Virus record (IMG/VR): IMGVR_UViG_2061766007_000135
Strand: one strand, 5' to 3'
DNA: 64,000 bases
From: an uncultured virus (IMG/VR IMGVR_UViG_2061766007_000135)
Taxonomy: Duplodnaviria > Heunggongvirae > Uroviricota > Caudoviricetes
Shown here: positions 12,660-28,980 of the stretch, piece after piece
How the letters are laid out: the number at the start of each line of letters is the position of its first letter
How positions within the stretch are numbered: position 1 is the stretch's first letter
Notes under the pieces: generated by a model
Database searches by the model: none
What the model was told of the DNA's origin: nothing
What the model saw: the letters and a program-made list of their open reading frames with translations, nothing else
Position numbers and translations under genes: made by a program

Positions 12660-13012
12660 ACATAAAAATGCTCCCCAATGGTAATGTCGTAGCTAATATT
12701 CCTGAATTGGATTTAAAGCCACGAACTACAAATGATATTGTATATGGACAATATTTTGGTTTAACCGCAGAGGAGTATGATAAATATGTAAAGTGGTGTC
12801 GTGAAATTGGGGCAGATAAATATGCTGGCGCAATTGGTGGCGATACCACTTTTCATATTACTCCAACCTCAATAGGAGAAATTATTACTGTTACTTGTCG
12901 TCGTGTAGCACGAGACATTAATGGTAAGCCAATCGAAAAGCGTAAGAGCCGCACAGGACAGAAACGGTATAAAATGCGCACATATAAATGTGTATTAAGA
13001 GATATATGGTAA
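12656..13012 (+). CDS. hypothetical protein
   Basis: ATGA overlap with the previous gene. Confidence 0.65.
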   Translation: MNIKMLPNGNVVANIPELDLKPRTTNDIVYGQYFGLTAEEYDKYVKWCREIGADKYAGAIGGDTTFHITPTSIGEIITVTCRRVARDINGKPIEKRKSRTGQKRYKMRTYKCVLRDIW

Positions 13013-13260
13013 CAGAAAATAAAGATATTGAAATTCTTATTAAACCTAAGACATTTGAGACGGAAGCAGAAATCACTTTTAAAAGCCGTATGGAGCCAAG
13101 AATTAAATTGATGCTTGGTTCTATTGATGCCGCAGATTTGATTGAGGATATTCTAAGTAAATTTCCACTTTATGACGCAGAAATGCAAACTTTGATTCTA
13201 TCTTATTTAAAAAATTTCTTTAAAGACTGTGGAATGAAGGTTGTGGAGGTACAAAAATGA
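13006..13260 (+). CDS. hypothetical protein
   Basis: Overlapping, co-oriented ORF. Confidence 0.55.
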   Translation: MVTENKDIEILIKPKTFETEAEITFKSRMEPRIKLMLGSIDAADLIEDILSKFPLYDAEMQTLILSYLKNFFKDCGMKVVEVQK

Positions 13261-13741
13261 GAGTTTGGTTTCAAGGAATGACTTATAAAGAGTATAAACA
13301 GGTGACTCATTGGGAAGAAATGGACCAATATTGGGTAGAACTTCTTGATGATGATGATCATTTGGTCACCGTAATTAATTGGACGCATGTCTTATATATG
13401 GAGCCCATGAGATAATGACATTAGTTGCACCATTTTTGATTTGTAGCTGGTGCATAATTGCTACAGCATTTTATATACAAGTACATTCTAAACTAAACTA
13501 TCAGTCATTTGAAAATCTTAAAAATTTTTGATATAATATTCTTACAAGGTTGAGGAAGAAAAGAACCAAAGAAAGGATGTATCATATGATGTATTCTGCC
13601 GATACGCATTACAACTATTGGACATATGATTCTCAGATCCGGTTCTCGCAGGCCAAAATTTCTTATGAGGATATTGAAGAAGAAGAAACAGAAGAAGAGC
13701 GCAATCCTTATATGGACTAATGGGGTTAAATCCCCATTCAT

Positions 13742-13818
13742 CGTTCCCTAGCTCAGGCGGTTAGAGCAGTGGTCTTATAAACCAAAGGTCCTCGGTTCGA
13801 GTCCGAGGGGAACGACCA
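13742..13818 (+). tRNA. tRNA-Ile(UAU)
   Basis: Cloverleaf, anticodon loop CT-TAT-AA, CCA end. Confidence 0.9.
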
Positions 13819-13937
13819 AAAGTACAAGTCACTTGAAAATCTTAAAAATTTTTGATATAATATTCTTGTAAGGTTGAGAAAGGACAAAAGCGCTTCAAAA
13901 GTGTTTGAGAATTTTCAAAAACCATACAACAATATAT

Positions 13938-14044
13938 GGGGTGTGATGCTGCATCGGGGTAGCAGCTGCGGTAAACCGAAAGGTGATTACAGTAGGGCCT
14001 TGCAAAAATGCCTGAGTGGAGTTCAAATCTCCCACATTCCACCA
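13938..14044 (+). tRNA. atypical 107-nt tRNA-like RNA (possible GCA or TGC anticodon)
   Basis: GGGGTGTG/CACATTCC acceptor, GGAG-TTCAAAT-CTCC T arm, ACCA end, extra hairpin insert. Confidence 0.55.
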
Positions 14045-14087
14045 TCCGTCTGAGTGCGGGACGACGTTAATCACAGCCGCACGTTAT

Positions 14088-14163
14088 GCCGATATAGCTC
14101 AGTTGGTAGAGTACGTCCTTGGTAAGGATGGGGTCACCAGTTCAAGTCTGGTTATCGGCTCCA
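14088..14163 (+). tRNA. tRNA-Thr(GGU)
   Basis: Cloverleaf, CCA. Confidence 0.95.
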
Positions 14164-14441
14164 CTACTCCTGGATGGTAGGGAGTATAATCAACAAGCCT
14201 TACAGCGTGCCGACTGTACAAGACTGGCAACACGCCTGACTCGGGCCGTTCAAGAGGGGACAAGGAACCCAGTCGCCAGAGTATTTTAAACCGAGTGTCT
14301 GGAGCGGAACTACACATCTTCAGCCGAAACGCACAAAAACTTGCGCCAAGTGTAGTGGTAGCTATTGGTGCAGCCTATAGACCAATAGGTAGAAGCAAGT
14401 TGCTGGATTTACATCCCTGCGGTTTGCCAGCATCTTTTTAT

Positions 14442-14781
14442 GGGGTAGTAAAAGGTTTCGACAGGTCGTGAAGAGTATTAAGAACGCGGGTAGGCGGCGC
14501 ACCTTACGCAGCAATCAAAAGAAACGATAACTACGATTATCTTCCTGCCGTAGCCTGATTAGGCTGGCATCCTAAACAGTGGGCTTCCTGGTCGGTGACC
14601 ACTTGCGGATCAGAGAATGAACCAGGAATAAGTTTCCTATTTCTTACAAAAATAGGTGGTGGAGGCTCGTGCAACCAAGTGCGGCCCTGGTTGCTGGATA
14701 CCTTAAATCCAGCTATCGCGTAAGTAATTCTTAGTATGTTTTGCGGTTTGGACAGGGGTTCGACCCCCCTCTACTCCACCA
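14442..14781 (+). ncRNA. ssrA: tmRNA
   Basis: 5' GGGGTAGTAAAAGGTTTCGAC, 3' GACAGGGGTTCGACCCCCCTCTACTCCACCA, G3-U70, tag frame ...DNYDYLPAVA-TGA. Confidence 0.92.
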
Positions 14782-14784
14782 TAT

Positions 14785-14859
14785 GGGTTGATAGTGATAA
14801 TGGTAGCACATCTGCTTAGCATGCAGAAAGTCGGAGTTCAATTCTCCGTCGATCCACCA
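14785..14859 (+). tRNA. tRNA-Ala(AGC)
   Basis: G3-U70, loop TT-AGC-AT, CCA. Confidence 0.88.
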
Positions 14860-14964
14860 ATAGTCCTCGTAAGGCTTGAAGTTACGACGAGGTGGCGGCC
14901 GCGTAAAAACCGCTATGATATTGAATAGTAAGCCCTATCATTCATATGAAAAGGAGCGGCCAAT

Positions 14965-15195
14965 ATGACAAAACAACAGAAATTGGAAAAAATGTTGATG
15001 TGTGTGCAGGCCATAGAAAAAGGAATCAAAAAAGATTATGAGTATCAGAACAATGCGGCAAAGCGTACTGATGGTACTGCAGATTGGTTTGCTGCCGCAG
15101 CTTATTTCTCGGATCTGATTGGTGAGAAGGTTAATTGCAATGATTTTGTCACGCTCTTCTCCCATACAAATTTCGCTAATGCGAAAGTCACTTGA
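14965..15195 (+). CDS. hypothetical protein
   Basis: SD AAGGAG. Confidence 0.65.
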   Translation: MTKQQKLEKMLMCVQAIEKGIKKDYEYQNNAAKRTDGTADWFAAAAYFSDLIGEKVNCNDFVTLFSHTNFANAKVT

Positions 15196-15420
15196 AAACT
15201 TTAAAAATTTTTGATATTATATATAAGGAAGATGAGGGAAGGACAAAAGTCCCCAACAAAATCTTCAGATTTTCAAAGATAAAACAGATGGGGCGACGCC
15301 CTGAAAGCTGAGGCTAGTAAGCCGAGTACGTGAACTGCAGTAAATCGTACAAAAGTGAGTAAGGAAACGGAGCTGGCGTCCACTGGCGAAGTGGCTAAAC
15401 GCTAACCATATGTACTTTAT

Positions 15421-15496
15421 GCGCCATTGGCTCAGTTGGTAGAGCAACTGACTCTTAATCAGTGGGTCCAGGGTTCGAGTCCCTGATGGCGCACCA
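15421..15496 (+). tRNA. tRNA-Lys(CUU)
   Basis: Cloverleaf, CCA. Confidence 0.95.
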
Positions 15497-15666
15497 ATAC
15501 CGGATGCTAAGCGGTTATAATACTTGGCGACGTAGAAGTGGCCGCCGCTCGCCATCAAATGCGGTAGTCCCTTACAGTTTGCTGCCATCCCAGTTAGGAC
15601 TTTAAACTGAACTGTTGTAAGACCAGGTGGGGTTAGCGCACCCTTCTGTAAACAAAAGCGCAATAT

Positions 15667-15742
15667 GCGGGGTTAGCTCAGTTGGGAGAGCATCTGCCTT
15701 ACAAGCAGAGGGTCGGCGGTTCGAGCCCGTCACTCCGCACCA
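15667..15742 (+). tRNA. tRNA-Val(UAC)
   Basis: Cloverleaf, CCA. Confidence 0.95.
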
Positions 15743-15834
15743 CACGGGCGGGAAGCTCAAAGGTGCGTAGATGGCCAATGCGGCCGTGAGAGTAAAAGCC
15801 AGCGCAAGAACCCGTAGGCAACCCGTGACCATAT

Positions 15835-15909
15835 GCCGGTGTAGCTCAGTGGTAGAGCAACGGACTCATACCCCGTAGGTCGGTGGTTCAACCCCACCCG
15901 CCGGTACCA
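15835..15909 (+). tRNA. tRNA(CAU), elongator Met or Ile2
   Basis: Loop CT-CAT-AC, CCA. Confidence 0.85.
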
Positions 15910-16089
15910 GGCCAATGTAGCTATCGAGAAGGCTTCGGAGATGTTCAATAGGTTAAGCTCCAGAAATCAAACCTGTAGGGATTAGGATAACCGTTGCTAC
16001 GCGGGAAATCTCCCATTCGTAAGTAGAAGGCGCGGCAGTACAGCGCCCCGTAAGGACAAAACCATTACAATATTCTACTTATTTTATAT

Positions 16090-16175
16090 GCGTCGGTATG
16101 CCTAGCGGCGAGGGCAAGGGACTGTAAATCCCCCACTGAGTAACACCGTTGGTTCGATTCCAACCCGGCGCACCA
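16090..16175 (+). tRNA. tRNA-Tyr(GUA)
   Basis: Long variable region, CCA. Confidence 0.9.
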
Positions 16176-16326
16176 TGACGAGGATTGGAGCAACGTCAAA
16201 AAATAAAGCCCCCAAGATGTTTTCCGGTATCAGAACATAACCGGCATAGAGCAGAAGGGTTAGTGGTGGTTTGTATAATAACCAGGCATGGAAATCTGCG
16301 GAAGTGCGAAAAACCACTATTTTTAT

Positions 16327-16401
16327 GCGCGTGTAGCCTAGAGGTAAGGCAACAGACTTTTAATCTGTGTACCGCGGGTTCGATTCCCGCCACGCGCACC
16401 A
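16327..16401 (+). tRNA. tRNA-Lys(UUU)
   Basis: Cloverleaf, CCA. Confidence 0.92.
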
Positions 16402-16404
16402 GAT

Positions 16405-16479
16405 GCTATGGATGCACGTCGGCCGGGCACAAGTCTGCAAAACTTGCGTTAGTGGGTTCAACTCCCACCCATAGCTCCA
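16405..16479 (+). tRNA. tRNA-Cys(GCA)
   Basis: U73, loop CT-GCA-AA, CCA. Confidence 0.9.
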
Positions 16480-16482
16480 TAT

Positions 16483-16556
16483 AGGAGTCTGGTGTAATGG
16501 TAGCATGTCGGTCTCCAAAACCGTTGGTCGGGGTTCAAATCCCTGGACTCCTGCCA
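16483..16556 (+). tRNA. tRNA-Trp(CCA)
   Basis: Cloverleaf, G73, CCA. Confidence 0.93.
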
Positions 16557-16575
16557 TAATAAAGGAGTATGATAT

Positions 16576-17721
16576 ATGGGAATGAATATTGTTAACTCTG
16601 GAAGCCGTTTCCAAGTTTACGGTGAAGATGTTAAAACATTCCGTAATTTGCCTGTGGGCTCTTACAATGTTGAATTTCACAAGATGATGGGTTTCTTCCT
16701 GACAGAACGTCATGATCTTGTGGTAACTGAAGATAAAATCTATGGTAATAGTGATTATAAGGTCGAGAAAGTAATGCGGTCATATGCACTTTCCGATCGT
16801 AATTTTGGTGTACTTCTCTCTGGTCAGAAGGGTATTGGTAAAAGTCTTTTTGTGCGTCTAGTTGCGCAAAAGGCGATTGCTAGTCAGCTCCCTGTGATTG
16901 TTGTGAGTTCTGCTATCCCTGGATTAGCGGATTTCATTTCTTCGATTGAGCAGGATTGCGTAGTTGTTTTCGACGAGTTTGAAAAAACTTTCGCAAAACA
17001 AGAAGATTGGAATCCACAAGATGAAATGCTATCTTTGTTCGATGGCATTGATGGCGGACATAAATTGTTCATTGTTACTTGTAACAAATTGGAAGATTTG
17101 AGCCAGTATATGCTTAACCGCCCTGGCCGCTTCCATTATCATTTCACGATGACTCCGCCTTCTCAAGATGAAGTGCGCGAATACCTTGAAGATAAAGTGG
17201 ATCCTGAATATCAAGGTGCTATCAATGACGTAGTAAATCTTGCTGGCGTAATTGATATGCCATATGATTTCTTGCGAGCTATTGCTTTTGAATTGAATCA
17301 AGGCTATGGCTTGAAAGAAGCAATGTCTGATCTGAATATCACTCGTGTCAACAGTATGAAGTTCGACATTAAGGTGTATCTCACTAATGGATTGTGCTTC
17401 GAAGCTTGGAGTGAACGAATCAACCTTAGTGATCATGATCTTCATTGGGTTCGTGTAAAGCGGTATCGTGATCGTGATAATAAGAATGATAACCTTCCGC
17501 TTGAATTGAGTATTCAGTTTGTTCCTGCTTTGGCTCATATGGTAGGAAGTGAATACATCATCAATGAACGGATTGTTTATCCGAAATGGGATTCTGATGA
17601 TTTTTTCGATGTATCTGATGAAGAAGCAAAGCAACTTGCAGACATCATGAATAAACAGCGCATCGAACGTATTGTACTTACAAAGGTGGCGGACTACGGT
17701 CCAGCAAGATACTTGGTATGA
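16576..17721 (+). CDS. AAA+ ATPase
   Basis: Walker A GQKGIGKS, Walker B VVVFDEFEK, NRPGR. Confidence 0.9.
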   Translation: MGMNIVNSGSRFQVYGEDVKTFRNLPVGSYNVEFHKMMGFFLTERHDLVVTEDKIYGNSDYKVEKVMRSYALSDRNFGVLLSGQKGIGKSLFVRLVAQKAIASQLPVIVVSSAIPGLADFISSIEQDCVVVFDEFEKTFAKQEDWNPQDEMLSLFDGIDGGHKLFIVTCNKLEDLSQYMLNRPGRFHYHFTMTPPSQDEVREYLEDKVDPEYQGAINDVVNLAGVIDMPYDFLRAIAFELNQGYGLKEAMSDLNITRVNSMKFDIKVYLTNGLCFEAWSERINLSDHDLHWVRVKRYRDRDNKNDNLPLELSIQFVPALAHMVGSEYIINERIVYPKWDSDDFFDVSDEEAKQLADIMNKQRIERIVLTKVADYGPARYLV

Positions 17722-18185
17722 GAATTTATACAAGCTACTTTTATCAAGTTCGATTTTTCCCTCAAAATCTTATTCCATTGTCTACGGCTATCTATGATCC
17801 TAAATGGTTTCACGCAAACCAAAGTCAAGCGTATCAATATGAAGATGGCCGTGGTGTAATCAATGGAATTCGAGCTGAGATTTTTAATCCTCATAATAGT
17901 GATTGTCGCGGTCCTGAGTGTTGTACTCAGGACCCGAGTTTGGGACGTTGTAGTTTTCTATTGAAATATAAAATTCAACTTAATGAATTAGATTTTCAGC
18001 TGGTGATGCAACGCTTTGAAAATTTACGGCAAACTTTAATTCAACGTAAAGGTTTTAATGATGTTAATTTTGCCCTTTTGGTGCATGAAGCTCCATACAA
18101 TCCTTGTAGTGAACGAGTGGTTATACAAGAGTGGTTCGCCGATAACGGTATACAAGTAACCGAGTGGTCACGAGAGTTAATTTGA
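17718..18185 (+). CDS. DUF488-like protein
   Basis: IYTSYF...LLVHEAP..PCSERVVIQEWF. Confidence 0.6.
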   Translation: MRIYTSYFYQVRFFPQNLIPLSTAIYDPKWFHANQSQAYQYEDGRGVINGIRAEIFNPHNSDCRGPECCTQDPSLGRCSFLLKYKIQLNELDFQLVMQRFENLRQTLIQRKGFNDVNFALLVHEAPYNPCSERVVIQEWFADNGIQVTEWSRELI

Positions 18186-18247
18186 AAATCTTAAAAAAAT
18201 TTGATATAATATTCTTACAAGGTTNNNNNNNNNNGGAGAAAAAACAA

Positions 18248-18469
18248 ATGCTCAATATCCTGTCTGTAGAACCGGGGCATAAAGTCACAGGCAAACAGAT
18301 CAACGATTGGTGCGCTGAACAGATCGCAACTAATGGATCTCATTTTGATGAAGCGCTCAAGTTTATTGATAAGAATTATCAGGATGAAACAATTTATGAG
18401 GCAATTCGCACTGAACTTCATTCTGGACATAACGCACCGAAGGTCTTAACCTTTAGAAAGGTCATTTGA
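18248..18469 (+). CDS. hypothetical protein
   Basis: Early promoter and GGAG SD (N gap upstream). Confidence 0.6.
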   Translation: MLNILSVEPGHKVTGKQINDWCAEQIATNGSHFDEALKFIDKNYQDETIYEAIRTELHSGHNAPKVLTFRKVI

Positions 18470-18872
18470 AAATCTTAAAAAAATTTGATATAATATTCTT
18501 GTAAGGTTGAGAGAGAGAAAGGAGCTGCTTCAAATGCCTGATGATTTCCTGATGAACGAATCCTATGATGCTTGGGATGAAGAGTTCGACAATGAAATGG
18601 CAGCCTGGGATGAATATTGTAAGGAACTGGCTGAAGAGAGCGGCGACTTGAAAAACTAAAAAAAATATGATATAATATTTAAGGAGAAGGAAAACTCCTC
18701 AAAAAACCCTGACCCAAGGAGCACAGAGGCCACGAAAAAAATATCAGCTCAACTCAAACTACGACAATGAGTATAAAAAATAGTTCAAGTCGCTTGGGTC
18801 CCGCGGCCAAGTAAAAGACACGTGGGGTCGAAGGAAGTGGCGCTGAGGATCGCCATTAAAATCCTCAGATAT

Positions 18873-18948
18873 GACCCGCTGGTCTAGTGGTTAGGACGGT
18901 TGCTTCTCCAGCAGCAAAGTTCGAGTTCAAATCTCGGGCGGGCCACCA
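18873..18948 (+). tRNA. tRNA-Glu(CUC), atypical (C37, A2-C71 mismatch)
   Basis: Cloverleaf, CCA. Confidence 0.75.
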
Positions 18949-19141
18949 ACGGAGAAAAGACTTTAGAAAAGTCGGTGCCACTCCTAAACTGGCAGAACAA
19001 AAATTCTTTGGTTCTCTTGAGTGCAGGGTCACACCCGTGGTAGCAGTGGTCCCGCAAGGAAGGCGACTTGCATACAAGTTCCGCGCTGCAGTTGTAAGAA
19101 CCACCAAGAGAACTTCCTATGGTATGCACATAGGTGATTAT

Positions 19142-19217
19142 GACGCGCTAGTCAAATGGTTAAGACGGTTGCCTCTCAAGCAACAGACCGTAGGTTCGAA
19201 TCCTCGGCGCGCCACCA
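19142..19217 (+). tRNA. tRNA-Glu(CUC), second copy
   Basis: Loop CT-CTC-AA, A2-C71 mismatch, CCA. Confidence 0.8.
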
Positions 19218-19593
19218 AGACCTAGGTATTCGTTTGGCAGCTACGCTTGGCTAGAGGTCGGTAAATAAAAGGCAAGGCAGTAACTGTCTCCGCTAGGGAG
19301 ATGTCCTTAGACAGTTTGGGGAGATTGCCCGATTAGATCCTCACCCCACAGTTCTGAAAAAACTGATACAAAGAAGTCTCTAATTGCGGATGCTCCTAAG
19401 TAGAGAGCTGGTTCGTGAGCAGGTGAGACTCCTGCCGAAGACAAATAAAAGGCTTACTTGCGCAAGGGGTTTGTAGGCTGATCCTCCTTTTGAGGGAAAA
19501 ACCTTCAAGTTCTTTTTGGACACAATTACGAACGACTTGAAAATCTTAAAAAAATTTGATATAATATTCTTACAAGGTTGAGAAAAGCAATAA

Positions 19594-19669
19594 TGCGGGA
19601 TGGACCAGTGGTTAAGTCATTTGCCTCATAAGCAAAAAATCGTCGGTTCAAATCCGACTCCCGCGACCA
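19594..19669 (+). tRNA. tRNA-Met(CAU), initiator-like body
   Basis: fMet-like acceptor/T arm, U1-G72, but TTTGC/GCAAA anticodon stem. Confidence 0.85.
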
Positions 19670-19679
19670 GTGTTATTCA

Positions 19680-20620
19680 TCCTTCTCACATTAGAAAAGT
19701 AAGGATGGTTCTTGCCTGACTCTCCTAAAAGAGTAGGTACTCAATAGATAGGAGTGAGAAGTTCTGTATGCAACAGTGGGGTTCGATACCCTCTCCGGCT
19801 CTGGATAGGGCTGGAGACTAGAGGGAAGTGGTTGGTCAGAATTGCTCTGACGAGAGCTAGCTCCCATTCAAAGGTAGCTTCTTTGAATGCTCAAATTAAA
19901 GTGTGATGGCATAGGGAAGGCCCTAGTTGGTATCGGAGTCATGACCGAATCCAGAAAAGTAGCTGCCGGCTACTACACACGAACCTTTCAGGTACTAGGA
20001 GGAGCGCCTGGCACATTGCGAACGTTGAAGATCCTCCCCGCGGATTTTTAAATTGATGTAGCTAAGCCGTGAAGAACGGTCATACCTAGTGGGGTTAGGC
20101 CTATTAGGTTATGAAAGAAGGTAGATGGGAAGGAAACTCGCGTCCTTCATCGAAGTAGGTCAGGCCCCCTATGGAGATAAACCAGAGAGCAGAGAGTCGC
20201 TGGGCTACCTTATTGCTGAAAAACGGGATGGTAGGAAACTTTAATGTCCTTGCTGGTTGAGGAGTTATAACCGAAGACCAGAGAAGCAGTTAAGATTAAG
20301 CGCTGCACCCGTCACGATGTGTAGGCACGCAGTTAGTGAGGTCTGCGTTATCAAAACCAAGGCACCTTATCCCGAACCTCCACGTGGTGGTGCTGGAAAC
20401 AGGTTTCAGAGTAAAGCTAAGTCTATGAAATGAACCTGACTAAGAGGGAACCCGTAGGCTGTGAGCAGGGTCAAAGCTCGGACAGTCCGAGTGATTGCCG
20501 TTGAAGCAATTCGGCAAAGGCCGAGTCGATACTAGGCGCTGCAGAGCCTAGACGCCATATCTGATGTACCTAGTGTACAAACAGTTCCCGATAATGATAA
20601 ATATGAATCAGCGAGAAGTC
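19680..20620 (+). ncRNA. candidate large structured ncRNA (GOLLD/ROOL-like size and context)
   Basis: No ORF of 60 aa or more in any frame in the track, raised GC, many hairpins, lies between tRNA genes; boundaries approximate. Confidence 0.65.
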
Positions 20621-20658
20621 AATTTAAGTGGCCCAATGACATAATTATTATTATCTAT

Positions 20659-20733
20659 GCTGCCCTAGTCCAGAGGTTAAGACGCTGGCCTTTCAAGCCA
20701 GATAGAGGGGTTCAATTCCCCTGGGCAGTACCA
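20659..20733 (+). tRNA. tRNA-Glu(UUC)
   Basis: Cloverleaf, CCA. Confidence 0.93.
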
Positions 20734-20954
20734 GCGCTCGTGCGCTTAAGAATGGTAATTCAATACCTCCGTACCATTCAAATCTTAGAGGTATGACAGC
20801 TGGGAGAGACCGCCAGGGTGGTACTAAAGCAGTACCTTAATGAGGCAGAGACACTTGCGCCGCCAATGCATCAATGATGCAAGTGGATACATGACCCACT
20901 ATAAAAAGGTGCCGCGCTGATAGGCCGCAAGTTCGCAATAGTCTATCAATTTAT

Positions 20955-21030
20955 GGGGGTGTAGCTCAGTTGGTAGAGCATCTGCCCTGCAAGCAGAGGG
21001 TAGTGAGTTCGAATCTCATCACTTCCACCA
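20955..21030 (+). tRNA. tRNA-Ala(UGC)
   Basis: G3-U70, C33, CCA. Confidence 0.92.
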
Positions 21031-21178
21031 TTGGCTTTCCACTGGTCTTGTGCCATAAACAAGGTCTTAGTGAGCGATCACTCACTATAATCTCTAATAG
21101 TACGGTGATGGAAATCTTAAATGATGACTGCATTTGACAGCCGTAATGATCCAAGCCGGGGGTGGGCCTGGCAACTAT

Positions 21179-21255
21179 GGCACATTAGTTCAGATGGTTA
21201 GAATGCCAGCTTGTCACGCTGGAGGTCGTGGGTTCGATTCCCACATGTGTCGCCA
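21179..21255 (+). tRNA. tRNA-Asp(GUC)
   Basis: Cloverleaf, CCA. Confidence 0.95.
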
Positions 21256-21352
21256 TATCAAACGCCAGTCAGACAGAAAAGATTCTGGCGGTCGGTATAG
21301 AGACCTAAAACCTATACCATAGGCGAGCGGAGCGCCTAACCTCCGCTTATAT

Positions 21353-21428
21353 GGCCCTAGAGCTCGGGTGGTAGAGCAGCTGACTGTTAATCAGAAGGTC
21401 GTAGGTTCGAACCCTACTGGGGCCGCCA
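21353..21428 (+). tRNA. tRNA-Asn(GUU)
   Basis: Cloverleaf, CCA. Confidence 0.93.
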
Positions 21429-21579
21429 TTGTCGCTCCTTTAGCGCAGTTCAGAGCGACTCATAAATAGTTAACTGGCACCGCTACTACGGATTTAGCAC
21501 TTAAACTACCACCGGCATCTTTAGATGATATGTGGCTTAGTGAAAGGCGGTATATAAGAAGCAAAGTAAAGTGCGTTAT

Positions 21580-21655
21580 GGGTCAGTAGCTCAACTGGTA
21601 GAGCACGTGCCTGAAGAGCACGGTGTAGGTAGTTCGACTCTACCCTGACCCACCA
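21580..21655 (+). tRNA. tRNA-Phe(GAA)
   Basis: Cloverleaf, G37, CCA. Confidence 0.93.
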
Positions 21656-21870
21656 TTAAATCAAAATCCATCTGACATGACTGTGGCTACAAGGTGCAGA
21701 AGGATGGCGGTAGTTTGACGCCAAGATTGGTGAAACGATAGCCGGTTTTGGATGAAATAACGCACGGGATGCAAGAGAGTCAAACACTACGAGAATTATA
21801 TTATAGAGATATGTAGCCGCACTCCCTATGGTACGTTACTGCATATTACTTTGGACATAGGGACGATCGT

Positions 21871-21947
21871 CGGAATGTAGCACAGTCGGTTAGTGCAGCG
21901 CTCTGATAAGGCGAAGATCGTTGGTTCGAATCCAACCATTCCGACCA
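21871..21947 (+). tRNA. tRNA-Ile(GAU)
   Basis: Cloverleaf, CCA. Confidence 0.92.
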
Positions 21948-21950
21948 TAT

Positions 21951-22024
21951 GCATCATTAGTGTAATGGTAACATCTCTGCCCTCCAAGCAGATGTTGTGG
22001 GTCCGAGTCCCATATGATGCTCCA
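21951..22024 (+). tRNA. tRNA-Gly(UCC)
   Basis: U73, C33, CCA. Confidence 0.9.
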
Positions 22025-22078
22025 CTACCCCAAGAATAGAGCGGGGTAAATAAAAGGTTAGAAAGAAGAGAAACTAAC

Positions 22079-22396
22079 ATGAAGTATTTTAGTGATGTAA
22101 CCCATAAGATATATGAAACTGTCGAGTAGCTTGAGACTGCTGAGAAGCAGCTAACCGAGCAGAAGAAAGCAAAGGAACTTGCGGAAGCCAAGAAGAAGGA
22201 AGAGCGTGAAGCAAGAGCTAAGGAAGTAGATGCGGCAATTAAAGCAGCTGTTGAAGCGCAGAAAGAAGCAACTGCTAAACTTAATGCTTTCTGTAAGGAT
22301 TATGGTGTTTTTCATACCTCAGTTGAAAATGCTAATGCCCTCTTGGGTAATGTAAATCCTTTCGATAATTTCTTTAGAACCTTTTGGGGTTTCTAA
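22079..22396 (+). CDS. coiled-coil hypothetical protein (one in-frame TAG)
   Basis: MKYFSDVTHKIYETVE[Q]LETAEK...FCKDYGVFH; paralog fragment at 27956-28129. Confidence 0.75.
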
Positions 22397-22425
22397 CCAT
22401 CACGCGGGGTTTGTCCCCGCGATGT

Positions 22426-22499
22426 GCCTCGCTAGTTCAATGGCAGAACAACAGTTTCGTAAACTGTGAATGTAGGTTCGATTCCCACGCAAGGCTCCA
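22426..22499 (+). tRNA. tRNA-Thr(CGU)
   Basis: Cloverleaf, CCA. Confidence 0.88.
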
Positions 22500-22504
22500 G
22501 CCGC

Positions 22505-22581
22505 AGACGTGTCAGCAATGATTTTTTCTTGTGCATTTTAATGAGAGAAGCGGGATCGGCTCCGTGGATATAAACGCGTCT
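22505..22581 (+). ncRNA. stem-CAGCAA RNA copy 1
   Basis: AGACGTGT-CAGCAA...ACGCGTCT. Confidence 0.7.
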
Positions 22582-22614
22582 AGTTTATTTTAAAAATTAG
22601 AATTGGAGTATCGT

Positions 22615-23577
22615 ATGTATAAATTCATTGATCTTTTTGCTGGTATTGGCGGGTTTCGGTTAGCATTTGAAGCTAATACTTGTTAGTGTGTATTCTCAAG
22701 TGAAATTGATAAATTCGCTTAGTAGACTTATGCTGCTAATTTTGGAGACACTCCTGCTGGAGATATAACATAGATTTCTACAGATGATATTCCTGATTTT
22801 GATATTTTAGTAGGCGGTTTCCCTTGTTAGCCATTTTCTTTGGCAGGTATCGGCACTAAAAAGTTTCTTGACCGACCAACAGGTTTTGAAGATAAAACAT
22901 CAGGAACTTTATTTTTTGATATTTGCCGCATACTGCAAGCGAAACAACCTAAAGCCCTCTTATTAGAGAATGTAAAGAATTTAGCTTCACATGATCAAGG
23001 TAAAACTTTCAAAATTATTTTGGAATCACTTTCTGAATTAGGCTATAAAGTTTTTTATCAAGTGATTGATGGAAAATTATATGTGCCGCAACATCGAGAG
23101 CGTATGGTAATAGTAGGATTTAGAAAGGATATAATTGGTGATGAATCATTTGATTTCGCACTTAATCCTCCTGTGGGACGACTTTTGAATGTAGGCGATA
23201 TTCTTGAAAATAACGTGGAAGCTAAATATACCTTAAGTGATACAATGTGGAATTGGATTCAAAACCATACTGCTAAACATTAGGCTCTTGGACACGGTTT
23301 TTCATTTGGATTAATTTCTCCAGAAGGTATCACAAATACTTTAACTGCACGTTATTATAAAGATGGTAAAGAAATATTGGTGCCGCAAGAAGGTATGAAT
23401 CCACGACGTTTAACTCCTCGTGAATGTGCAAGGTTATAGGGATTTCCAGATTCATTTAAGATTGTTTGTTCAAATACTCAAGCTTATAAGCAATTTGGCA
23501 ATTCTGTGGTAGTACCTTTAATGCAAGATGTAGCAAGATTAATTGTTTTAAAGCTAGATGAATTAACTACTATTTGA
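22615..23577 (+). CDS. dcm: DNA (cytosine-5)-methyltransferase, TAG-recoded (7 TAG)
   Basis: [13 protein letters not shown][TAG][22 protein letters not shown][TAG]GFP, QFGNSV. Confidence 0.93.
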
Positions 23578-23615
23578 AAATCATAAAAAAAAATGATATA
23601 ATATATATAGGAAAT

Positions 23616-23708
23616 GGGGAGATACCCAAGTGGTTGAAGGGGGCCGCCTACTAAGCGGTTAGGTGCTAGCGATAGCACGCCTGGGTTCGAATCCCAGTCT
23701 CCCCGCCA
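23616..23708 (+). tRNA. tRNA-Ser(ACU)
   Basis: Long variable arm, G73, loop CT-ACT-AA, CCA. Confidence 0.88.
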
Positions 23709-23776
23709 GTTAATTTGAAAATCTTAAAAAAATTTGATATAATATTCTTACAAGGTTGAGAGAAAGGAAGTGCGAT

Positions 23777-23989
23777 ATGTTCTTTTTCAAAGTTGAGTAT
23801 TGGGATAGTATTGAGAGTGAACCGAAACAGGTCGCTGGTTTGCTAAAGGCCAGATCTTACAAAGAAGCGACTGCGACTCTTGCTGAAGAATATGAAAGCA
23901 TTATTTCCCTGTATCTTGAAGAGTGGGAAAGTGTCCTGACGACTGAAGAAATCCTTGATGGTTTCGCCCGCAACGAACAAGAGACTTAA
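23777..23989 (+). CDS. small acidic hypothetical protein
   Basis: Early promoter and SD. Confidence 0.65.
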   Translation: MFFFKVEYWDSIESEPKQVAGLLKARSYKEATATLAEEYESIISLYLEEWESVLTTEEILDGFARNEQET

Positions 23990-23998
23990 GTCTCATAT

Positions 23999-24085
23999 GC
24001 CCAGGTGATGGAACTGGCAGACGTAGCGGACTTAAAATCCGCTGTCCGAAAGGACGTACGGGTTCAAATCCCGTCCTGGGCACCA
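23999..24085 (+). tRNA. tRNA-Leu(UAA)
   Basis: Class II cloverleaf, CCA. Confidence 0.95.
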
Positions 24086-24176
24086 CCACTCCGCAAGCTA
24101 TTTTCTTACCTTCACCTCCACCTTCTTGTTCATGACAATATACCTCCACCTAGCTTGCGGAGTTTTTTCTTTCTAT

Positions 24177-24261
24177 GGCCGTGTGATGGAATTGGCAGAC
24201 GTGCTTGACTCAAAATCAAGTGTCGCGAGACGTGTGGGTCCGAGTCCCACCATGGCCACCA
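24177..24261 (+). tRNA. tRNA-Leu(CAA)
   Basis: Class II cloverleaf, CCA. Confidence 0.93.
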
Positions 24262-24264
24262 TAT

Positions 24265-24340
24265 GCTCCATTAGCCCAATGGCAGAGGCGATGCGCTTAG
24301 AACGCATAAAGTGTGGGTTCGAATCCCATGTGGAGTACCA
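24265..24340 (+). tRNA. tRNA-Leu(UAG), short variable loop
   Basis: Loop CT-TAG-AA, A73, 5-nt variable loop. Confidence 0.85.
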
Positions 24341-24498
24341 AGGGCACTGCCATCCAGGGAAAAACTCAAGGCGGCGGAGAAGCTGATCCTCCGACAGGTA
24401 GGGACTCTAATTTGTAATACAGTAGCCAGAGATGCTGTATGAGGTTATAGAGGTTAAATGAGGAGCCACTGGGATCTACCTACTAGACAGCTTTTTAT

Positions 24499-24573
24499 GC
24501 CCGGTTAGCTCAACGGATAGAGTACACGGCTACGAACCGTGCGATGTAGGTTCGATTCCTATACCGGGTACCA
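24499..24573 (+). tRNA. tRNA-Arg(ACG)
   Basis: Cloverleaf, CCA. Confidence 0.93.
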
Positions 24574-24645
24574 TCACCTACGCAAGAGCAATGGCTGCAA
24601 TGCAGGAGCCCGTAGGTTTTATAAGGGGCTTATTAAGCCCCACTT

Positions 24646-24731
24646 GGGGAGTTGCTGGAATTGGCAGACAGGCATGCTTGAGGTGCATGTGTCACAATGG
24701 CGTATCGGTTCAAATCCGATACTCCCCACCA
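24646..24731 (+). tRNA. tRNA-Leu(GAG)
   Basis: Class II cloverleaf, CCA. Confidence 0.93.
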
Positions 24732-24736
24732 TTCAA

Positions 24737-24797
24737 GAGATGCGCACAGCAATGATTTTACATTCTTACCATTTATTGAGAACAAGTAAGGCATCTC
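24737..24797 (+). ncRNA. stem-CAGCAA RNA copy 2
   Basis: GAGATGC-GCA-CAGCAA...GCATCTC. Confidence 0.65.
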
Positions 24798-24808
24798 GTA
24801 AATAATAA

Positions 24809-24883
24809 CTCCTGGTAGGCTAACGGATAGACCAAGAGACTTCTAATCTCTATATCGAGGTTCAATTCCTCGTCAGGAGACCA
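24809..24883 (+). tRNA. tRNA-Arg(UCU)
   Basis: Cloverleaf, CCA. Confidence 0.9.
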
Positions 24884-24885
24884 AC

Positions 24886-24994
24886 AGACCGTTTCAGCAA
24901 GTGCCGCAAGGCTTTAGCATTTGTCAAGTGGATAAGACATAACTTTGGAAGAGTTAGAACACGGGTCCGAATCCCGTATGCGATTAAGCGGTCT
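24886..24994 (+). ncRNA. stem-CAGCAA RNA copy 3 with embedded CCA-less tRNA body (GGA loop)
   Basis: AGACCGTT/AGCGGTCT stem; internal D arm, TAACT-TTGGAAG-AGTTA arm, ACGGG-TCCGAAT-CCCGT T arm. Confidence 0.7.
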
Positions 24995-25000
24995 AGATAT

Positions 25001-25075
25001 GTGGTGCGTCGTCCAATGGTAGGACAACAGATTGTGGCTCTGTGAACGTAGGTTCGATTCCTATCGCTCCACCCA
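25001..25075 (+). tRNA. tRNA-His(GUG)
   Basis: G-1/C73, CCA. Confidence 0.9.
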
Positions 25076-25181
25076 ATATTGCCGCCACGGTTAATGGTTC
25101 AAATTCTGCCGGCAAAAGCGTAACAATAGAAGTCCCGCATGGTGAAAGCGTCCCAATAGGATGTTCGGCGGTTAGCTTTAT

Positions 25182-25255
25182 GCGGTTATAGTTTAGGGGT
25201 AAAATTTCTGCTTGCCATGCAGAGGTCACGGGTCCGAATCCCGTTAACCGCTCCA
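25182..25255 (+). tRNA. tRNA-Gly(GCC)
   Basis: Cloverleaf, CCA. Confidence 0.92.
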
Positions 25256-25260
25256 TTTTA

Positions 25261-25375
25261 AAGACCTGTCAGCAATTTTCTTTTGTTTAGTGGAAACCGA
25301 GGTTATCAGTTCGAGTCTGATCGTCCCCACCGTGGGGATGTAGCTCAAGTGGCAGAGCACGTAATAGCGGGTCTT
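25261..25375 (+). ncRNA. stem-CAGCAA RNA copy 4 with circularly permuted tRNA module (YrlA-like)
   Basis: T arm 25305-25321, closed acceptor hairpin CGTCCCCA-CCG-TGGGGATG, D arm TAGCTCAAGTGGCAGAGC, inside AAGACCTGT/GCGGGTCTT stem. Confidence 0.8.
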
Positions 25376-25403
25376 GTATTTATATTTTACAAGGAGAAAA
25401 ATT

Positions 25404-25943
25404 ATGAGCGACGCGAGACTCAAGATCCTCCCGCCTTGGACGATTGTAATACGAAAGTTTGAGGCCCTATTTGATGGCGATCCACTGATTGCTTGTAATT
25501 GCAATTTCAGTGGCGCTGAACCTTCTATCGTGCTTGCTTGTGGCAATGGCGATAAGACTGCTGCTCTCCAGCAGATTCTCCCCGACGAGATTGACTTTGG
25601 TAATGTAAAGCTCAAGGTCATGGTTGATGGCACTCCTAGCAACAAGGCATTTACTAGTAAGGTAGAGCTATTTGAAACTGCCTTTAAGGGCAATCCTGCA
25701 TTTGCATATGCGGTATGTCCTGCTGAAGAAGGCTATATGTGGATTGGCACAACCTATGTGGTATTCAAGAATTGTGTTGTGCAGTTTGCTGCGGACAATT
25801 TGAATGATTGCCACGGTATCATTAGTACTCTCTATCAGGATATTGCTGAGGAACTTCTTAGAGGTCCTGCAACTCAGGGTGTATTTTACAACACTGATGT
25901 TGAGCGTGCTAATCTCGGTAAGCCACTGGGTGAATGGCCGTAA
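25404..25943 (+). CDS. hypothetical phage protein
   Basis: SD AAGGAG, 179 aa. Confidence 0.75.
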   Translation: MSDARLKILPPWTIVIRKFEALFDGDPLIACNCNFSGAEPSIVLACGNGDKTAALQQILPDEIDFGNVKLKVMVDGTPSNKAFTSKVELFETAFKGNPAFAYAVCPAEEGYMWIGTTYVVFKNCVVQFAADNLNDCHGIISTLYQDIAEELLRGPATQGVFYNTDVERANLGKPLGEWP

Positions 25944-26230
25944 TAATTAAAGCGCCGTGATTGTCAGTCCAGTACCAGTCCGGAAGGTGTGGGCGCATTA
26001 CAAATTGAAATCGACGTAAATCTCATCCCTTAATAGAGATAATCGTTGAAACCTGGCTAGGGACTGATTAAGCCAGGTTTTGTTTTATAAATAAGTAGTT
26101 GCGCGAAAGCATCAGCTGGCACGCGCGCACAGGGTCGTACCCGCGAAAGCAAATTTAGATTTACAATTTTTAATTCTAAATAGGGCATATGCAGTAAAAA
26201 AAAATGAATCCCGAAAAGGAGAGAACATCT

Positions 26231-26734
26231 ATGAAGAAGATTTTGGCTATTTTGTTAGCAATTATGTTGGCATTTTGCTTGATCCCTAATGCTACAGCCA
26301 CAGGAGGCTCAGGTTCAGGTACAAGTGGTTTAAGTTCAGGTACAAGCGGCAGTACTCCATCCATTACAGTGCATGATCTCTTGTATTTTACTCCGAACTA
26401 TACTTGGGAAGAAATTGTGCCAACTTGGGAAGAAGTGGAATTTGCTCGCCCAATGTTAAGTTATTTCTTAGGTGAGCCTTATGATATGGTTGAAGCTCTC
26501 AGCTTAAATGTCGAATATAGATATGGTATTGTAAGTTTGAACGCTCCTACTATTTTCCTCTCAGATAATTATCTATTTCTTTTAGTGAATGCCACGAATA
26601 CTTATTATATGACACCAATTTTATTTAACGATAAGGAAACAAAAACTGGTTGTGCATTGTTAGATTTTACCAATGTTGAACCAGGTATTTATAATGCTTA
26701 TTTGTTTAATTCAGATAATACGGTTCCACAGTGA
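26231..26734 (+). CDS. secreted/surface protein with signal peptide and Gly/Ser linker
   Basis: MKKILAILLAIMLAFCLIPNATA-TGGSGSGTSG. Confidence 0.75.
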   Translation: MKKILAILLAIMLAFCLIPNATATGGSGSGTSGLSSGTSGSTPSITVHDLLYFTPNYTWEEIVPTWEEVEFARPMLSYFLGEPYDMVEALSLNVEYRYGIVSLNAPTIFLSDNYLFLLVNATNTYYMTPILFNDKETKTGCALLDFTNVEPGIYNAYLFNSDNTVPQ

Positions 26735-26813
26735 GCCGTATTTTTTTATATCAAAATTAATTAATTGATCTACTTAATTTTTGAAATATATAGATGAAAG
26801 GAGTTGTTTTTTT

Positions 26814-27845
26814 ATGGCACAATTATTATCTATTGCCACATTCGTTAAAGAATTAGAAGCAGCTTTAAATCGTAAAGATGGTTATATTATGGGTTCAAGA
26901 GGACAAAATCCAAGAACAGGTTCCTTAGATTTAAGTGTCACTAAAGAATCATCTTCTTGGAAAACTACTGGTTGGTATTATACTCAGTATAAAGATCGTA
27001 AAGAATATACTGCCGAGCAAGAGCAAAAGGCTTTATATTGGCGTGAACATGCTACAAGAGTATGGGATTGCAATGGAATGGCAGAGGGCATATATGAACT
27101 TCATACTGGTATAAATATCAATGCTCGTGCTCGTAATAATTATAATGAATGGTGTAATCCAAAAGGCACAGGTATAGTCCCTGCATCTATGCGCAAACCT
27201 GGTGTTGCAGTATTTTGGGGTCCAAGCGCTTCTGGTATTACACATGTAGCTTATCTTTGGAAGCCAGTTGTAGAAAATAAACCTGAAGGTGACTGGTATT
27301 TAATTGAAGCATAGGGTGTCTTAAAAGGTGTAGTAAGTTCTAAATTATTGTCACGTAAGCCTGGCTATTGGGGCTATATGACTAAATATTTTGATTATGA
27401 AAATGCTATTCCAGAGCCATATCCAGCAAATTCAATTCATATTGGTATGGAAGGCGCCGAAGTTAAAAAATTACAATAGGACTTAATGGCAGCTGGTGAG
27501 AAATTGCCTAAATATAAAGACGATGGCGATTTTGGACAAGAAACCTTAGCTGCGGTTAAGAGTTTTTAGAAGAAACATTCATTACCAGAAACTGGCATTG
27601 TAGATGATGCTACTAAAGAAATGTTGGCTAAAGTTTTAAACGCAGAAGTAACAAAAATGGTAGAAGTTACTGGTGGTCGCGTGAATGTGCGCAAAGGCCC
27701 ATCTGTTGCATATACTGCAATTGGTGTTGCTAAGCAAGGTGAAAAGTATTCTTATAATAATGAAACATATAATGAATGGTATTGTATTGTTTATAAAGGC
27801 CAAAAGGCTTGGATTTCAGGTAAATACAGTAAACTTTTGACTTAA
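26814..27845 (+). CDS. endolysin: NlpC/P60- or CHAP-like domain + PG-binding domain + SH3b, TAG-recoded (3 TAG)
   Basis: WDCNG...THVA; VKKLQ[TAG]DL..DGDFGQETLAAVKSF[TAG]KKH..TGIVD; VNVRKGPS..WISGKY. Confidence 0.88.
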
Positions 27846-27896
27846 ATAAAAAAATTTGTTATAATATATACACAAGATGAAAAAAGTCTTGTGTTT

Positions 27897-27945
27897 AGCC
27901 CCTTAGTTCAACGGCAGAACACCGGTCTCTAAAACCGTTATATCC
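27897..27945 (+). tRNA. amber suppressor tRNA(CUA), copy 1, cut by N gap
   Basis: AGCCCCTTAGTTCAACGGCAGAACACCGGT-CT-CTA-AA-ACCGT. Confidence 0.75.
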
Positions 27946-27955
27946 NNNNNNNNNN

Positions 27956-28129
27956 GCTCTTGCCGCAGAAGTAGATACTGCTCGTAAAGCATATCTAGAA
28001 GCACAGAAAACCTATCGTGAAAAGCTAGAAGGTTTCTGTAGTAAGTATGGTACCTATCACTATACAGTTGAAAATGGTGAAGAAATTCCTTCTCTCTTTG
28101 ATTTCTTTGGTAATCTTCTAAGATTCTAA
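27956..28129 (+). CDS. 3' part of paralog of 22079-22396 (5' end lost in N gap)
   Basis: AEVDTARKAYLEAQK..KLEGFCSKYGTYH. Confidence 0.65.
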   Translation, partial: ALAAEVDTARKAYLEAQKTYREKLEGFCSKYGTYHYTVENGEEIPSLFDFFGNLLRF

Positions 28130-28169
28130 GAAAGGCTTATGGACTGAGCCTATCAGTCCTTTCTTTTAT

Positions 28170-28263
28170 AGCCCCTTAGTTCAACGGCTAGAACACCGGT
28201 CTCTAAAACCGTTATATCCCTCTGAAGGAGGTAGTCTGGGTTCAAATCCCAGAGGGGCTGCCA
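28170..28263 (+). tRNA. amber suppressor tRNA(CUA), copy 2, long variable region
   Basis: Full cloverleaf, CUA anticodon, A1-U72, G73, CCA. Confidence 0.9.
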
Positions 28264-28269
28264 TAATAA

Positions 28270-28342
28270 AAGACGCTTCTATCAGCAATTAACCTTACAG
28301 GATGGGTTAATATCCTGTGCCATTTAGAATATATGGCGTCTT
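28270..28342 (+). ncRNA. stem-CAGCAA RNA copy 5
   Basis: AAGACGC...CAGCAA...GCGTCTT. Confidence 0.65.
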
Positions 28343-28894: not shown

Positions 28895-28900
28895 GTTTAT

Positions 28901-28977: not shown

Positions 28978-28980
28978 TAT

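Follow-up and report, generated by a model that had tools for sequence, protein, structure and literature searches.

Between two transfer RNA (tRNA) genes of an uncultured virus (IMG/VR record IMGVR_UViG_2061766007_000135) lies a stretch of 989 nucleotides (nt) without an open reading frame (ORF), and the locus raises the question of what kind of RNA, if any, fills such a gap. The window analysed here is 64,000 nt long. The original prediction, made from its letters alone, had described a densely paired RNA of about 950 nt whose size and context match the giant phage RNAs GOLLD and ROOL. Our best reading places the stretch in a cassette of tRNA-Met, spacer and tRNA-Glu (about 19594-20883) within the tRNA array of a rumen huge phage that has been recoded to read TAG as glutamine (Gln). 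We see about an even chance that the stretch is the transcribed spacer of this divergent cassette and consists of a chain of separately folding RNA domains of about 80-170 nt. One of these, module C, is on comparative evidence a conserved, covarying RNA family that matches no Rfam 15 model.

A non-coding gap in a phage tRNA array

The genome is huge-phage-like. Its tRNA array spans 13.7-30.3 kb of the window and holds 36 tRNA genes, a transfer-messenger RNA (tmRNA) gene and a suppressor tRNA gene with a CUA anticodon, all on the + strand. Other genes in the window encode gyrase, DnaB, RecJ and an RNA ligase. TAG is read as Gln in this phage, as seen in the C5 methylase gene at 22603-23577, which contains 7 TAG codons in frame and matches its Pfam family over the full length. 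The stretch and its neighbours are as follows.

19670-20658, + strand: the ORF-free stretch, 989 nt, the exact gap from tRNA-Met to tRNA-Glu(UUC)
19594-19669, + strand: tRNA-Met(CAU), found by ARAGORN and Rfam, CCA encoded, only about 79% identity with its syntenic counterpart in the closest relative (L002)
20659-20733, + strand: tRNA-Glu(UUC), found by ARAGORN and Rfam, CCA encoded, diverged from the copies in relatives (best 78-81%, over partial length)

The predicted position between tRNA-Met and tRNA-Glu holds, with borders that need extending: the proposed 19680-20620 falls within the true gap. No ORF of 60 or more amino acids is present in the gap under translation table 11. The longest stop-to-stop frame is 118 amino acids with TAG read as Gln, and it runs into a tRNA; under table 4 it is 149 amino acids and likewise overlaps the tRNAs. 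The ORF-free claim is therefore upheld under all three codes, and no long code-15 ORF crosses the stretch, the TAG=Gln frames being at most 118 amino acids. A relative that is about 95% identical carries 1-base insertions or deletions after 19949 and at 20091, as seen in the contig comparison described below. Because there is no long frame under the three codes and single-base indels occur in this relative, the stretch is non-coding, and a coding reading was rejected.

The stretch has a GC content of 0.47, compared with 0.31-0.44 in most 1-kb coding bins, in agreement with the earlier impression of raised GC. Its last 70 nt are A+U-rich and resemble neutral DNA of this genome. All seven hairpins named in the original prediction were found in the sequence, together with its T-loop-like GGGTTCGATACCC (19780-19792), and 6 of the 7 hairpins coincide with predicted helices, at pairing probabilities of 0.63-0.96.

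Module C is a covarying RNA element

Relatives of the locus were collected via the AAA ATPase gene at 16576-17721, 2 kb upstream of the stretch, which yielded one IMG/VR locus and the best 80 of 170 confirmed metagenome relatives. The region 20211-20330 aligns with two of these 81 loci (L003 and L012) and defines module C. A weaker second copy lies upstream.

20211-20330, + strand: module C, an RNA of about 110-125 nt with the order GGCUGAAAAACGGGA ... CCCGUCAC ... GUAGGCC, in which helices P1 and P2 enclose three hairpins
19903-19980, + strand: weak second copy of the module C core, with three hairpins in the same order inside a GUGUG/CACAC helix

The module is built from P1 (GGCU/GGCC), a joining segment J (GAAAA) and P2 (ACGGG/CCCGU) around the three hairpins, with a 3' CAC..GUA. 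A pattern made from its two conserved ends recovered four more copies in IMG/VR tRNA arrays. A search of 85 sources (827 kb) with the covariance model R1 recovers 9 copies at E<=1e-5, each of them located in a phage tRNA array. The copy in the window, one of the 7 seed sequences of R1, scores 104.5 bits, and two copies outside the seed score 64.9 bits (L083, 2705-2815) and 29.7 bits (L052). In the alignment 93.5% of cells are paired and double changes occur in 11 of 21 pairs, as measured on a model-fitted alignment, which leans to the structure. This level was reached in 0 of 500 shuffles, and sliding the partners by 1-3 columns gave at most 2. An additional hairpin beside the 3' strand of P2 also covaries by eye (GCAG/CUGC, GUAG/CUAC, GCGA/UCGC). 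Module C is found in other phages without the sequence that surrounds it here, in other slots and with other neighbours.

The second copy scores 16.2 bits with R1, with E values, under a rough calibration, of 0.13 in 827 kb and 1.5e-4 in a search of the 989 nt. A possible outer helix was seen by eye (GCUC at 19889-19892 with GAGC at 20002-20005), and module C has perhaps been duplicated within the stretch. The module was also looked for in prokaryote genomes, where 5 pattern matches in 596 Gb compare with about 4 expected by chance. These five score 10.7-16.7 bits or nothing with R1, have no tRNA nearby and were rejected.

A promoter upstream and a putative common precursor

A phage promoter lies directly upstream of the cassette, preceded by a terminator-like hairpin.

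19537-19565, + strand: phage promoter, TTGAAA, 17 nt, TG-extended TATAAT; a 29-nt motif, 29 nt before tRNA-Met
19489-19509, + strand: terminator-like hairpin, just upstream of the promoter

The 29-nt motif (TTGAAAAnCTwAAAAAAATwTGATATAAT) has 15 copies in the window between 3558 and 32162, on the + strand only, where shuffles lead one to expect 0 matches at the same threshold of at most 3 mismatches. The motif probably marks early or host-sigma70 transcription units. Its copies precede tRNA blocks and small genes, and the same motif is present in related phages. No terminator-like site is predicted on the + strand from 19510 to 22600, and the next promoter copy downstream is at 23574. For these two reasons, the promoter should give rise to a single precursor comprising tRNA-Met, the 989 nt, tRNA-Glu and further tRNAs, and the stretch should be co-transcribed with the tRNAs.

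A mechanism can be proposed on this basis. Transcription would start at the promoter and read through tRNA-Met, the spacer and the tRNAs that follow. The spacer would be freed by RNase P at 20659 and by 3' maturation of tRNA-Met at 19669, and might then be trimmed to stable small RNAs, as is the case for RNAC and RNAD in the tRNA cluster of T4. Over longer times, the modules would be gained, lost and swapped among phage arrays through recombination. As for function, our guess, made with low confidence, is that the modules are stable protein-binding or scaffold RNAs, or insulators for folding and processing of the tRNA precursor; a role as ribozymes or riboswitches seems unlikely to us.

The phage encodes several RNA-handling genes, namely the tmRNA, the suppressor tRNA, the RNA ligase and a DUF2828-vWA protein. 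The last of these, encoded at 32234-33748, combines DUF2828 with DUF7788/vWA and matches phrog_850 ('RNA-binding protein') at E 4.7e-126; no TROVE domain was detected in it. Its layout of a helical domain plus vWA recalls that of Ro60. The RNA ligase, encoded at 37235-38644, matches phrog_968. Both are candidate partners of the structured RNAs of the array.

Upstream of the promoter, the ORF-free region 19218-19510 follows tRNA-Glu(CUC) and terminates in the hairpin at 19489-19509. It is partly conserved in five relatives (L001, L002, L004, L012 and L020, at 72-88% identity), is present in RNA-library contigs, and may be a separate small RNA closing the preceding unit.

The same slot in related phages is a mosaic

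The tRNA-Met/tRNA-Glu(UUC) neighbourhood is retained in 8 distinct relatives among the 81 loci, and the slot between the two tRNAs measures 127, 216, 412, 458, 486, 506, 634 and 644 nt in these relatives compared with 989 nt here. The slot of 216 nt belongs to the closest relative, whose ATPase shows 97% protein identity and 88% DNA identity. Relatives with neighbouring genes that are 79-97% identical thus hold 127-644 nt of other sequence at this place. Their spacers are mosaics of blocks that recur at 71-95% identity in differing combinations, an identity as high as or above that of the DNA in the neighbouring ATPase region (68-88%). Almost none of these shared blocks is present in the 989 nt of the window. 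The neighbouring spacers of the window at 18186-18872, 19218-19593, 20881-20954 and 22025-22425 have homologues in at least three relatives each. The two flanking tRNAs are only about 79-81% identical to those of the closest relative, compared with 86-94% for the DNA on both sides of them, and we interpret 19594-20883 as a divergent cassette that has been swapped in.

The blocks in the relatives' spacers look like real RNA modules, and three of them, A, D and E, were folded. Module A is a helix-closed RNA of about 163 nt with five hairpins, one of them T-arm-like, and forms the start of the relatives' spacer after tRNA-Met (L001 12619-12781, L009 2131-2293, L020 12663-12825). Module E is a multi-branch RNA of about 110 nt at the end of the spacer in L001, L002, L004, L009 and L020, with double changes in 7 of 25 pairs. 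Neither A nor E was found in the window. Module D is present in the window, outside the stretch.

20893-20949, + strand: module D, a hairpin whose stem covaries and whose loop CGCAAGUUCGCAAUA is invariant; tRNA-Ala starts 5 nt downstream

Ten copies of module D were found in about 832 kb comprising the loci and the window (L001 at about 12853-12916, L002, L003, L009, L012, L020, L034, L082, L083 and the window itself). They share an invariant loop of 15 nt, a conserved 5' AAAGGUGYCGCG and a 7-bp stem in which 4 of 7 pairs show double changes. The module is 85-93% conserved, above its flanking tRNAs, and has no Rfam match. In four loci (the window, L003, L012 and L034) a tRNA begins a few bases after the module: tRNA-Ala in the window and tRNA-Glu in L003 and L012. 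As with module C, module D is present in other phages without the sequence surrounding it here.

The variability of the slot bears on an alternative that we consider rather unlikely, although it deserves weight: that the stretch is mostly filler. The slot would be a recombination hot spot in which module C (perhaps with its degenerate copy) alone is functional, the rest being remnants of swapped cassettes, decayed copies of tRNAs and modules, or leader and trailer sequence that is cut off by RNase P/E and degraded. A range of 127-989 nt among relatives, with 216 nt in the closest, is what such a slot could show, as is the finding that about 85% of the stretch lacks a homologue while neighbouring spacers match in 3 to at least 8 relatives. 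The A+U-rich last 70 nt point the same way, and both the T-arm-like hairpin without a recognisable tRNA and the weak C-like copy look like decayed duplicates. Set against this is the GC content, which stays at 0.47 over about 920 nt, compared with 0.31-0.44 in most coding DNA.

Predicted folding of the stretch

The fold of the stretch was predicted with a span limit of 200 nt. Helix-closed domains are predicted at 19682-19761, 19763-19917, 19922-19999, 20006-20165 and 20446-20589, followed by a hairpin at 20590-20655. The elements with distinct features are listed here; P is the pairing probability.

19777-19793, + strand: T-arm-like hairpin TGGGG / TTCGATA / CCCTC, with a strong hairpin (19792-19817) directly after; blastn matches to tRNA T-arms at other loci
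20006-20165, + strand: predicted helix-closed domain, closing helix 20006-20021 / 20150-20165 (P 0.87), four inner hairpins
20446-20589, + strand: predicted 3' helix-closed domain, GGGAAC/GUUCCC (P 0.79), hairpins 20476-20492, 20509-20526 and 20533-20552, without comparative support
20590-20655, + strand: predicted long A+U-rich hairpin, 18 pairs (P 0.98), ending 3 nt before tRNA-Glu

Neither ARAGORN nor the Rfam tRNA model (E<=10) finds a tRNA or tRNA pseudogene within 19670-20658, so the T-arm-like hairpin stands by itself. The 3' domain was considered as a diverged module E and rejected: model R2, built from 5 relatives, has no match in 13000-31000 and a best E of 0.44 elsewhere. MAFFT alignment shows GAACCCGUAGGC to be common to this domain and module E. 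No convincing homology emerged when the 5' half was aligned globally with the spacers of L003 and L012.

Strain variants and RNA libraries

The whole stretch is found only in 4 sequencing runs of the probable source sample (word share 0.62-0.99); 16 further public runs from other studies hold small word shares of it. Contigs were compared from two RNA-library runs of one study and two DNA runs of two other studies at a likeness threshold of 85%. RNA-library contigs match 19693-19860 with 1 difference and 20118-20328 with 0 differences. A DNA contig covers 19930-20238 with 16 differences, and others match 20308-20400 and 20361-20501. Runs X6 and X8, and segments that no contig covers, were not taken as signs of absence.

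Related strains join the pieces differently, with joints at 20022>20118, 20049>20118, 20049>20214 and 20361>20904. At 20049>20118, where 29 nt lie between the two sides, a GCCGU/ACGGU hairpin is kept and the hairpin 20081-20113 is dropped; at 20049>20214, 26 letters lie between. The joint 20361>20904 recreates the order of C followed by D that is seen in L003. Several joints coincide with a predicted hairpin border or miss it by a few bases. Among the RNA-library contigs, one of depth 214 carries module D followed directly by a module-C-like start, and a variant of module C has a contig depth of 41, compared with 2-13 for other pieces of the spacer.

These observations speak against mere filler on two counts: pieces of the stretch recur at 95-100% identity in the runs of other studies, RNA libraries included, and the variant joints are not randomly placed but lie close to predicted hairpin borders.

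Folding energy, conservation and the limits of the domain chain

Several results weigh against reading the stretch as a chain of RNA domains. The first concerns homologues. A blastn search of 50,697 phage records in INPHARED returned no homologue of the 989 nt, and blastn against the 81 related loci returned 0 matches at E<=0.01. With nhmmer, the same loci gave 1 match only (L003, E 0.001), which is module C, and a search of 5 whole viral records, of which two are complete genomes, matched module C alone. Exact-word scans of IMG/VR with 18-mers, 23-mers and 20-mers gave 1, 0 and 0 loci, and we took the single 18-mer locus as chance since it has nothing else in common with the window. Outside 20211-20330 and 19903-19980, these searches thus leave roughly 85% of the stretch with neither a homologue nor comparative support, and no module of the stretch beyond C shows covariation. 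Of the covariation that had been proposed as a check, the part that holds is the module C of about 120 nt; apart from the weak copy of about 80 nt, the rest has no homologue to compare.

The second concerns folding energy, which fails to separate the stretch from coding DNA. Against 20 shuffles per strand, the minimum free energy (MFE) of the whole length has z scores of -2.74 for the + strand, which none of the shuffles equals, and -1.15 for the - strand; three 989-nt coding stretches of the window give -0.95, -0.02 and -2.43. In 150-nt windows the mean z is -0.77, compared with -0.50 for gyrB, and the two windows over module C have z scores of +0.02 and +1.73. The energy model thus suggests only weakly that the stretch is unusually structured, and 'densely paired', as the original prediction put it, is not confirmed as exceeding chance.

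The third concerns variation. Among the 24 substitutions listed for relatives that are 88-96% identical, 14 fall at MFE-paired positions (58%, where 62% of covered positions are paired), and 9 of these 14 break a predicted pair. The variant with the joint 20049>20214 deletes the 3' strand of the predicted helix that closes 20006-20165. The contig comparison, finally, shows presence and mosaicism, and not transcription, ends, stability or abundance, and the processing into small RNAs is something we only infer.

The same data inform the view that the stretch is mostly filler. A local fold z equal to that of the coding control would be expected from it, as would substitutions that are not enriched in loops and break predicted pairs in 9 of 14 cases; the whole-length z of -2.74, however, is the lowest of the five stretches tested.

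Relation to giant and catalytic RNA families

No Rfam 15 family matches the stretch at the gathering score, at E<=1 (searched over 13000-31000) or at E<=10 (searched over 19660-20665). These searches included the models of GOLLD, ROOL, OLE, HEARO, group I and II introns, HDV-like ribozymes and tRNA, none of which matched; the E<=10 matches to SNORD125, DUF805b and MEG8 were judged noise. The original prediction had left the family unassigned, and the cmscan proposed at that stage, against GOLLD, ROOL, OLE, HEARO and group I/II models, gives nothing even at E<=10.

We consider it improbable that the stretch is one structured RNA of about 1 kb belonging to an undescribed, GOLLD- or ROOL-like class. 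Such an RNA would be freed in one piece by the enzymes that process the tRNAs and might act as a multimeric assembly; module C would form the conserved core, and the parts around it would evolve fast. Size and place agree with those of the known giants, the stretch is unbroken by promoter, terminator, ORF or tRNA, and its + strand folds better than its - strand. A palindrome, CUGCAG, lies in a predicted hairpin loop at 20540-20545, a feature of kissing-loop multimers, and variable peripheral hairpins are typical of large RNAs. However, GOLLD and ROOL themselves give no match, modules C and D occur elsewhere without the surrounding sequence, and the closest relative lacks the whole stretch. No robust long-range helix is predicted, and the helix that joins the 5' and 3' ends in the unrestricted MFE structure is missing from the centroid. 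The only long-range complementarity is that of UUGCGAAC (20016-20023) with the loop of module D; a kissing interaction between them was rejected, the complement lying near only 1 of the 10 copies of module D. What remains of the GOLLD/ROOL-like proposal is thus the location in a phage tRNA array, on the strand of the tRNAs, the non-coding nature, the lack of a known family and, for part of the stretch, a conserved structured RNA; a match to either giant and a single RNA of about 950 nt are not supported.

A known mobile or catalytic RNA beyond the reach of Rfam (a group I or II intron, an HDV-like theta ribozyme, or a retron- or IS-associated RNA) is highly improbable. The idea draws on theta ribozymes, which adjoin tRNAs in recoded gut phages, this phage being recoded and encoding the RNA ligase at 37235-38644. 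No intron, HDV-like or other ribozyme family matched at E<=10, and no reverse transcriptase, homing endonuclease or transposase ORF is present in or adjoining the stretch. Both tRNA-Met and tRNA-Glu encode CCA, as opposed to 4.5% of theta-associated tRNAs (PMC10879173). Inspection by eye of the first 60 nt after tRNA-Met (the theta authors' descriptor was not run) showed nothing that could pair over 7 bp with 19670-19676 to form a P1 that begins at G19670.

There is also a slim chance that the stretch is a new large RNA or a set of modules that function together. The two C-type junction domains and the T-loop domain would be released whole and would assemble as CUGCAG kissing dimers or dock on the DUF2828-vWA protein and the RNA ligase, managing tRNA supply or repair. 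If true, a role like that of GOLLD or ROOL would have been achieved by an unrelated, modular and fast-evolving RNA.

Further elements of the window

T-arm-like hairpins outside tRNA and tmRNA genes number 7 on the + strand of the whole window, where 0.9 are expected. The six besides that at 19777-19793 are at 5484, 14017, 25305, 29018, 30056 and 30191 and may be tRNA-like or Y-RNA-like elements. The hairpin at 5484 lies within a long terminator-like stem after a small gene, and those at 25305 and 29018 coincide with weak YrlA-like Rfam matches.

A spacer of 400 nt between tRNA-Gly and tRNA-Thr (22025-22425) is ORF-poor and 68-70% conserved in L001, L003 and L009. This spacer is a further candidate for a structured RNA and, in contrast to the 989-nt stretch, has homologues.

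The GC peak at 4-6 kb of the window (4000-5500) was considered as a second giant RNA and judged to be probably coding. It is accounted for by three small GC-rich ORFs at 4009-5410, read in frame by eye, which are about 115-120 amino acids long, paralogous-looking and each preceded by a promoter copy. Two of these copies, at 3914 and 4956, came from the motif search, and the third was seen in the sequence near 4481.

Comparison with known systems

Phage tRNA arrays are usually annotated as tRNAs with empty spacers between them. Here the spacers appear to hold conserved, covarying small RNAs, and the modules (C and D in the window; A, B and E in relatives) seem to be shuffled among arrays in the manner of cassettes. 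At least two modules are present at raised depth in rumen RNA-library contigs. Module C, with 9 copies and clear covariation, is a concrete family open to synthesis, probing and pull-downs. The locus also shows that size and tRNA context are insufficient for calling an RNA of the GOLLD/ROOL type. Our literature searches, which were not sequence-based, turned up neither an account of spacer modules of this sort in phage tRNA arrays nor anything relevant on DUF2828; metagenome RNA catalogues may already list module C.

Non-tRNA structured RNAs within phage tRNA clusters are a known kind, of which module C is a member matching no Rfam 15 family. The closest parallel is the tRNA region of T4 with its small RNAs RNAC and RNAD, whose roles are given as still unknown (PMC3014915). 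As here, these are non-tRNA RNAs within a phage tRNA cluster, on the tRNA strand and presumably cut from the same precursor. No sequence relation is claimed between the two cases, which differ in that several modules stand in a row within 1 kb here, in a huge recoded rumen phage. The observation made for RNAC and RNAD would thereby be widened to huge, stop-codon-recoded gut phages.

GOLLD and ROOL are described as 'often near tRNA islands', the GOLLD RNA env-38 lies downstream of a Met-tRNA, and the 3' part of GOLLD is conserved and its 5' part less so (bioRxiv 10.1101/2024.12.08.627333). GOLLD thus resembles the stretch in being phage-borne, near tRNA islands, in one example downstream of Met-tRNA, longer than 800 nt and variable in its 5' part. 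The stretch differs in matching no Rfam model, in having no large conserved 3' domain and in being missing from the closest relatives. ROOL shares the rumen and phage origin, the nearby tRNA islands and the ornate multi-hairpin look; again no Rfam model matches here, and the conserved unit is about 120 nt. ROOL is about 580 nt long, far above that unit.

A minimal HDV-like ribozyme is over ten times shorter than the 989-nt stretch. Theta ribozymes are described as lying within 5 nt of phage tRNA 3' ends, with more than 70% adjoining tRNA-Met, suppressor tRNA or tRNA-Leu; their hosts are recoded gut phages, often with a DRB0094-type RNA ligase, and CCA is encoded in only 4.5% of the associated tRNAs (PMC10879173). 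In both cases a recoded gut phage with an RNA ligase gene carries a structured RNA just behind a tRNA, which for theta ribozymes is often tRNA-Met. The difference lies in the lack of an HDV-like match and in the CCA encoded in the tRNAs here.

YrlA (RF02553) is an RNA with a tRNA-like module, and this array has T-arm-like hairpins outside its tRNAs; the phage also has a gene for a vWA-domain protein labelled 'RNA-binding protein' in PHROGs. YrlA has no match within the 989-nt stretch, and its weak matches in two other array spacers (25296-25366 at 31.8 bits and 29010-29077 at 29.4 bits) are far below the gathering score of 69. In the vWA protein, as noted above, no TROVE domain was detected.

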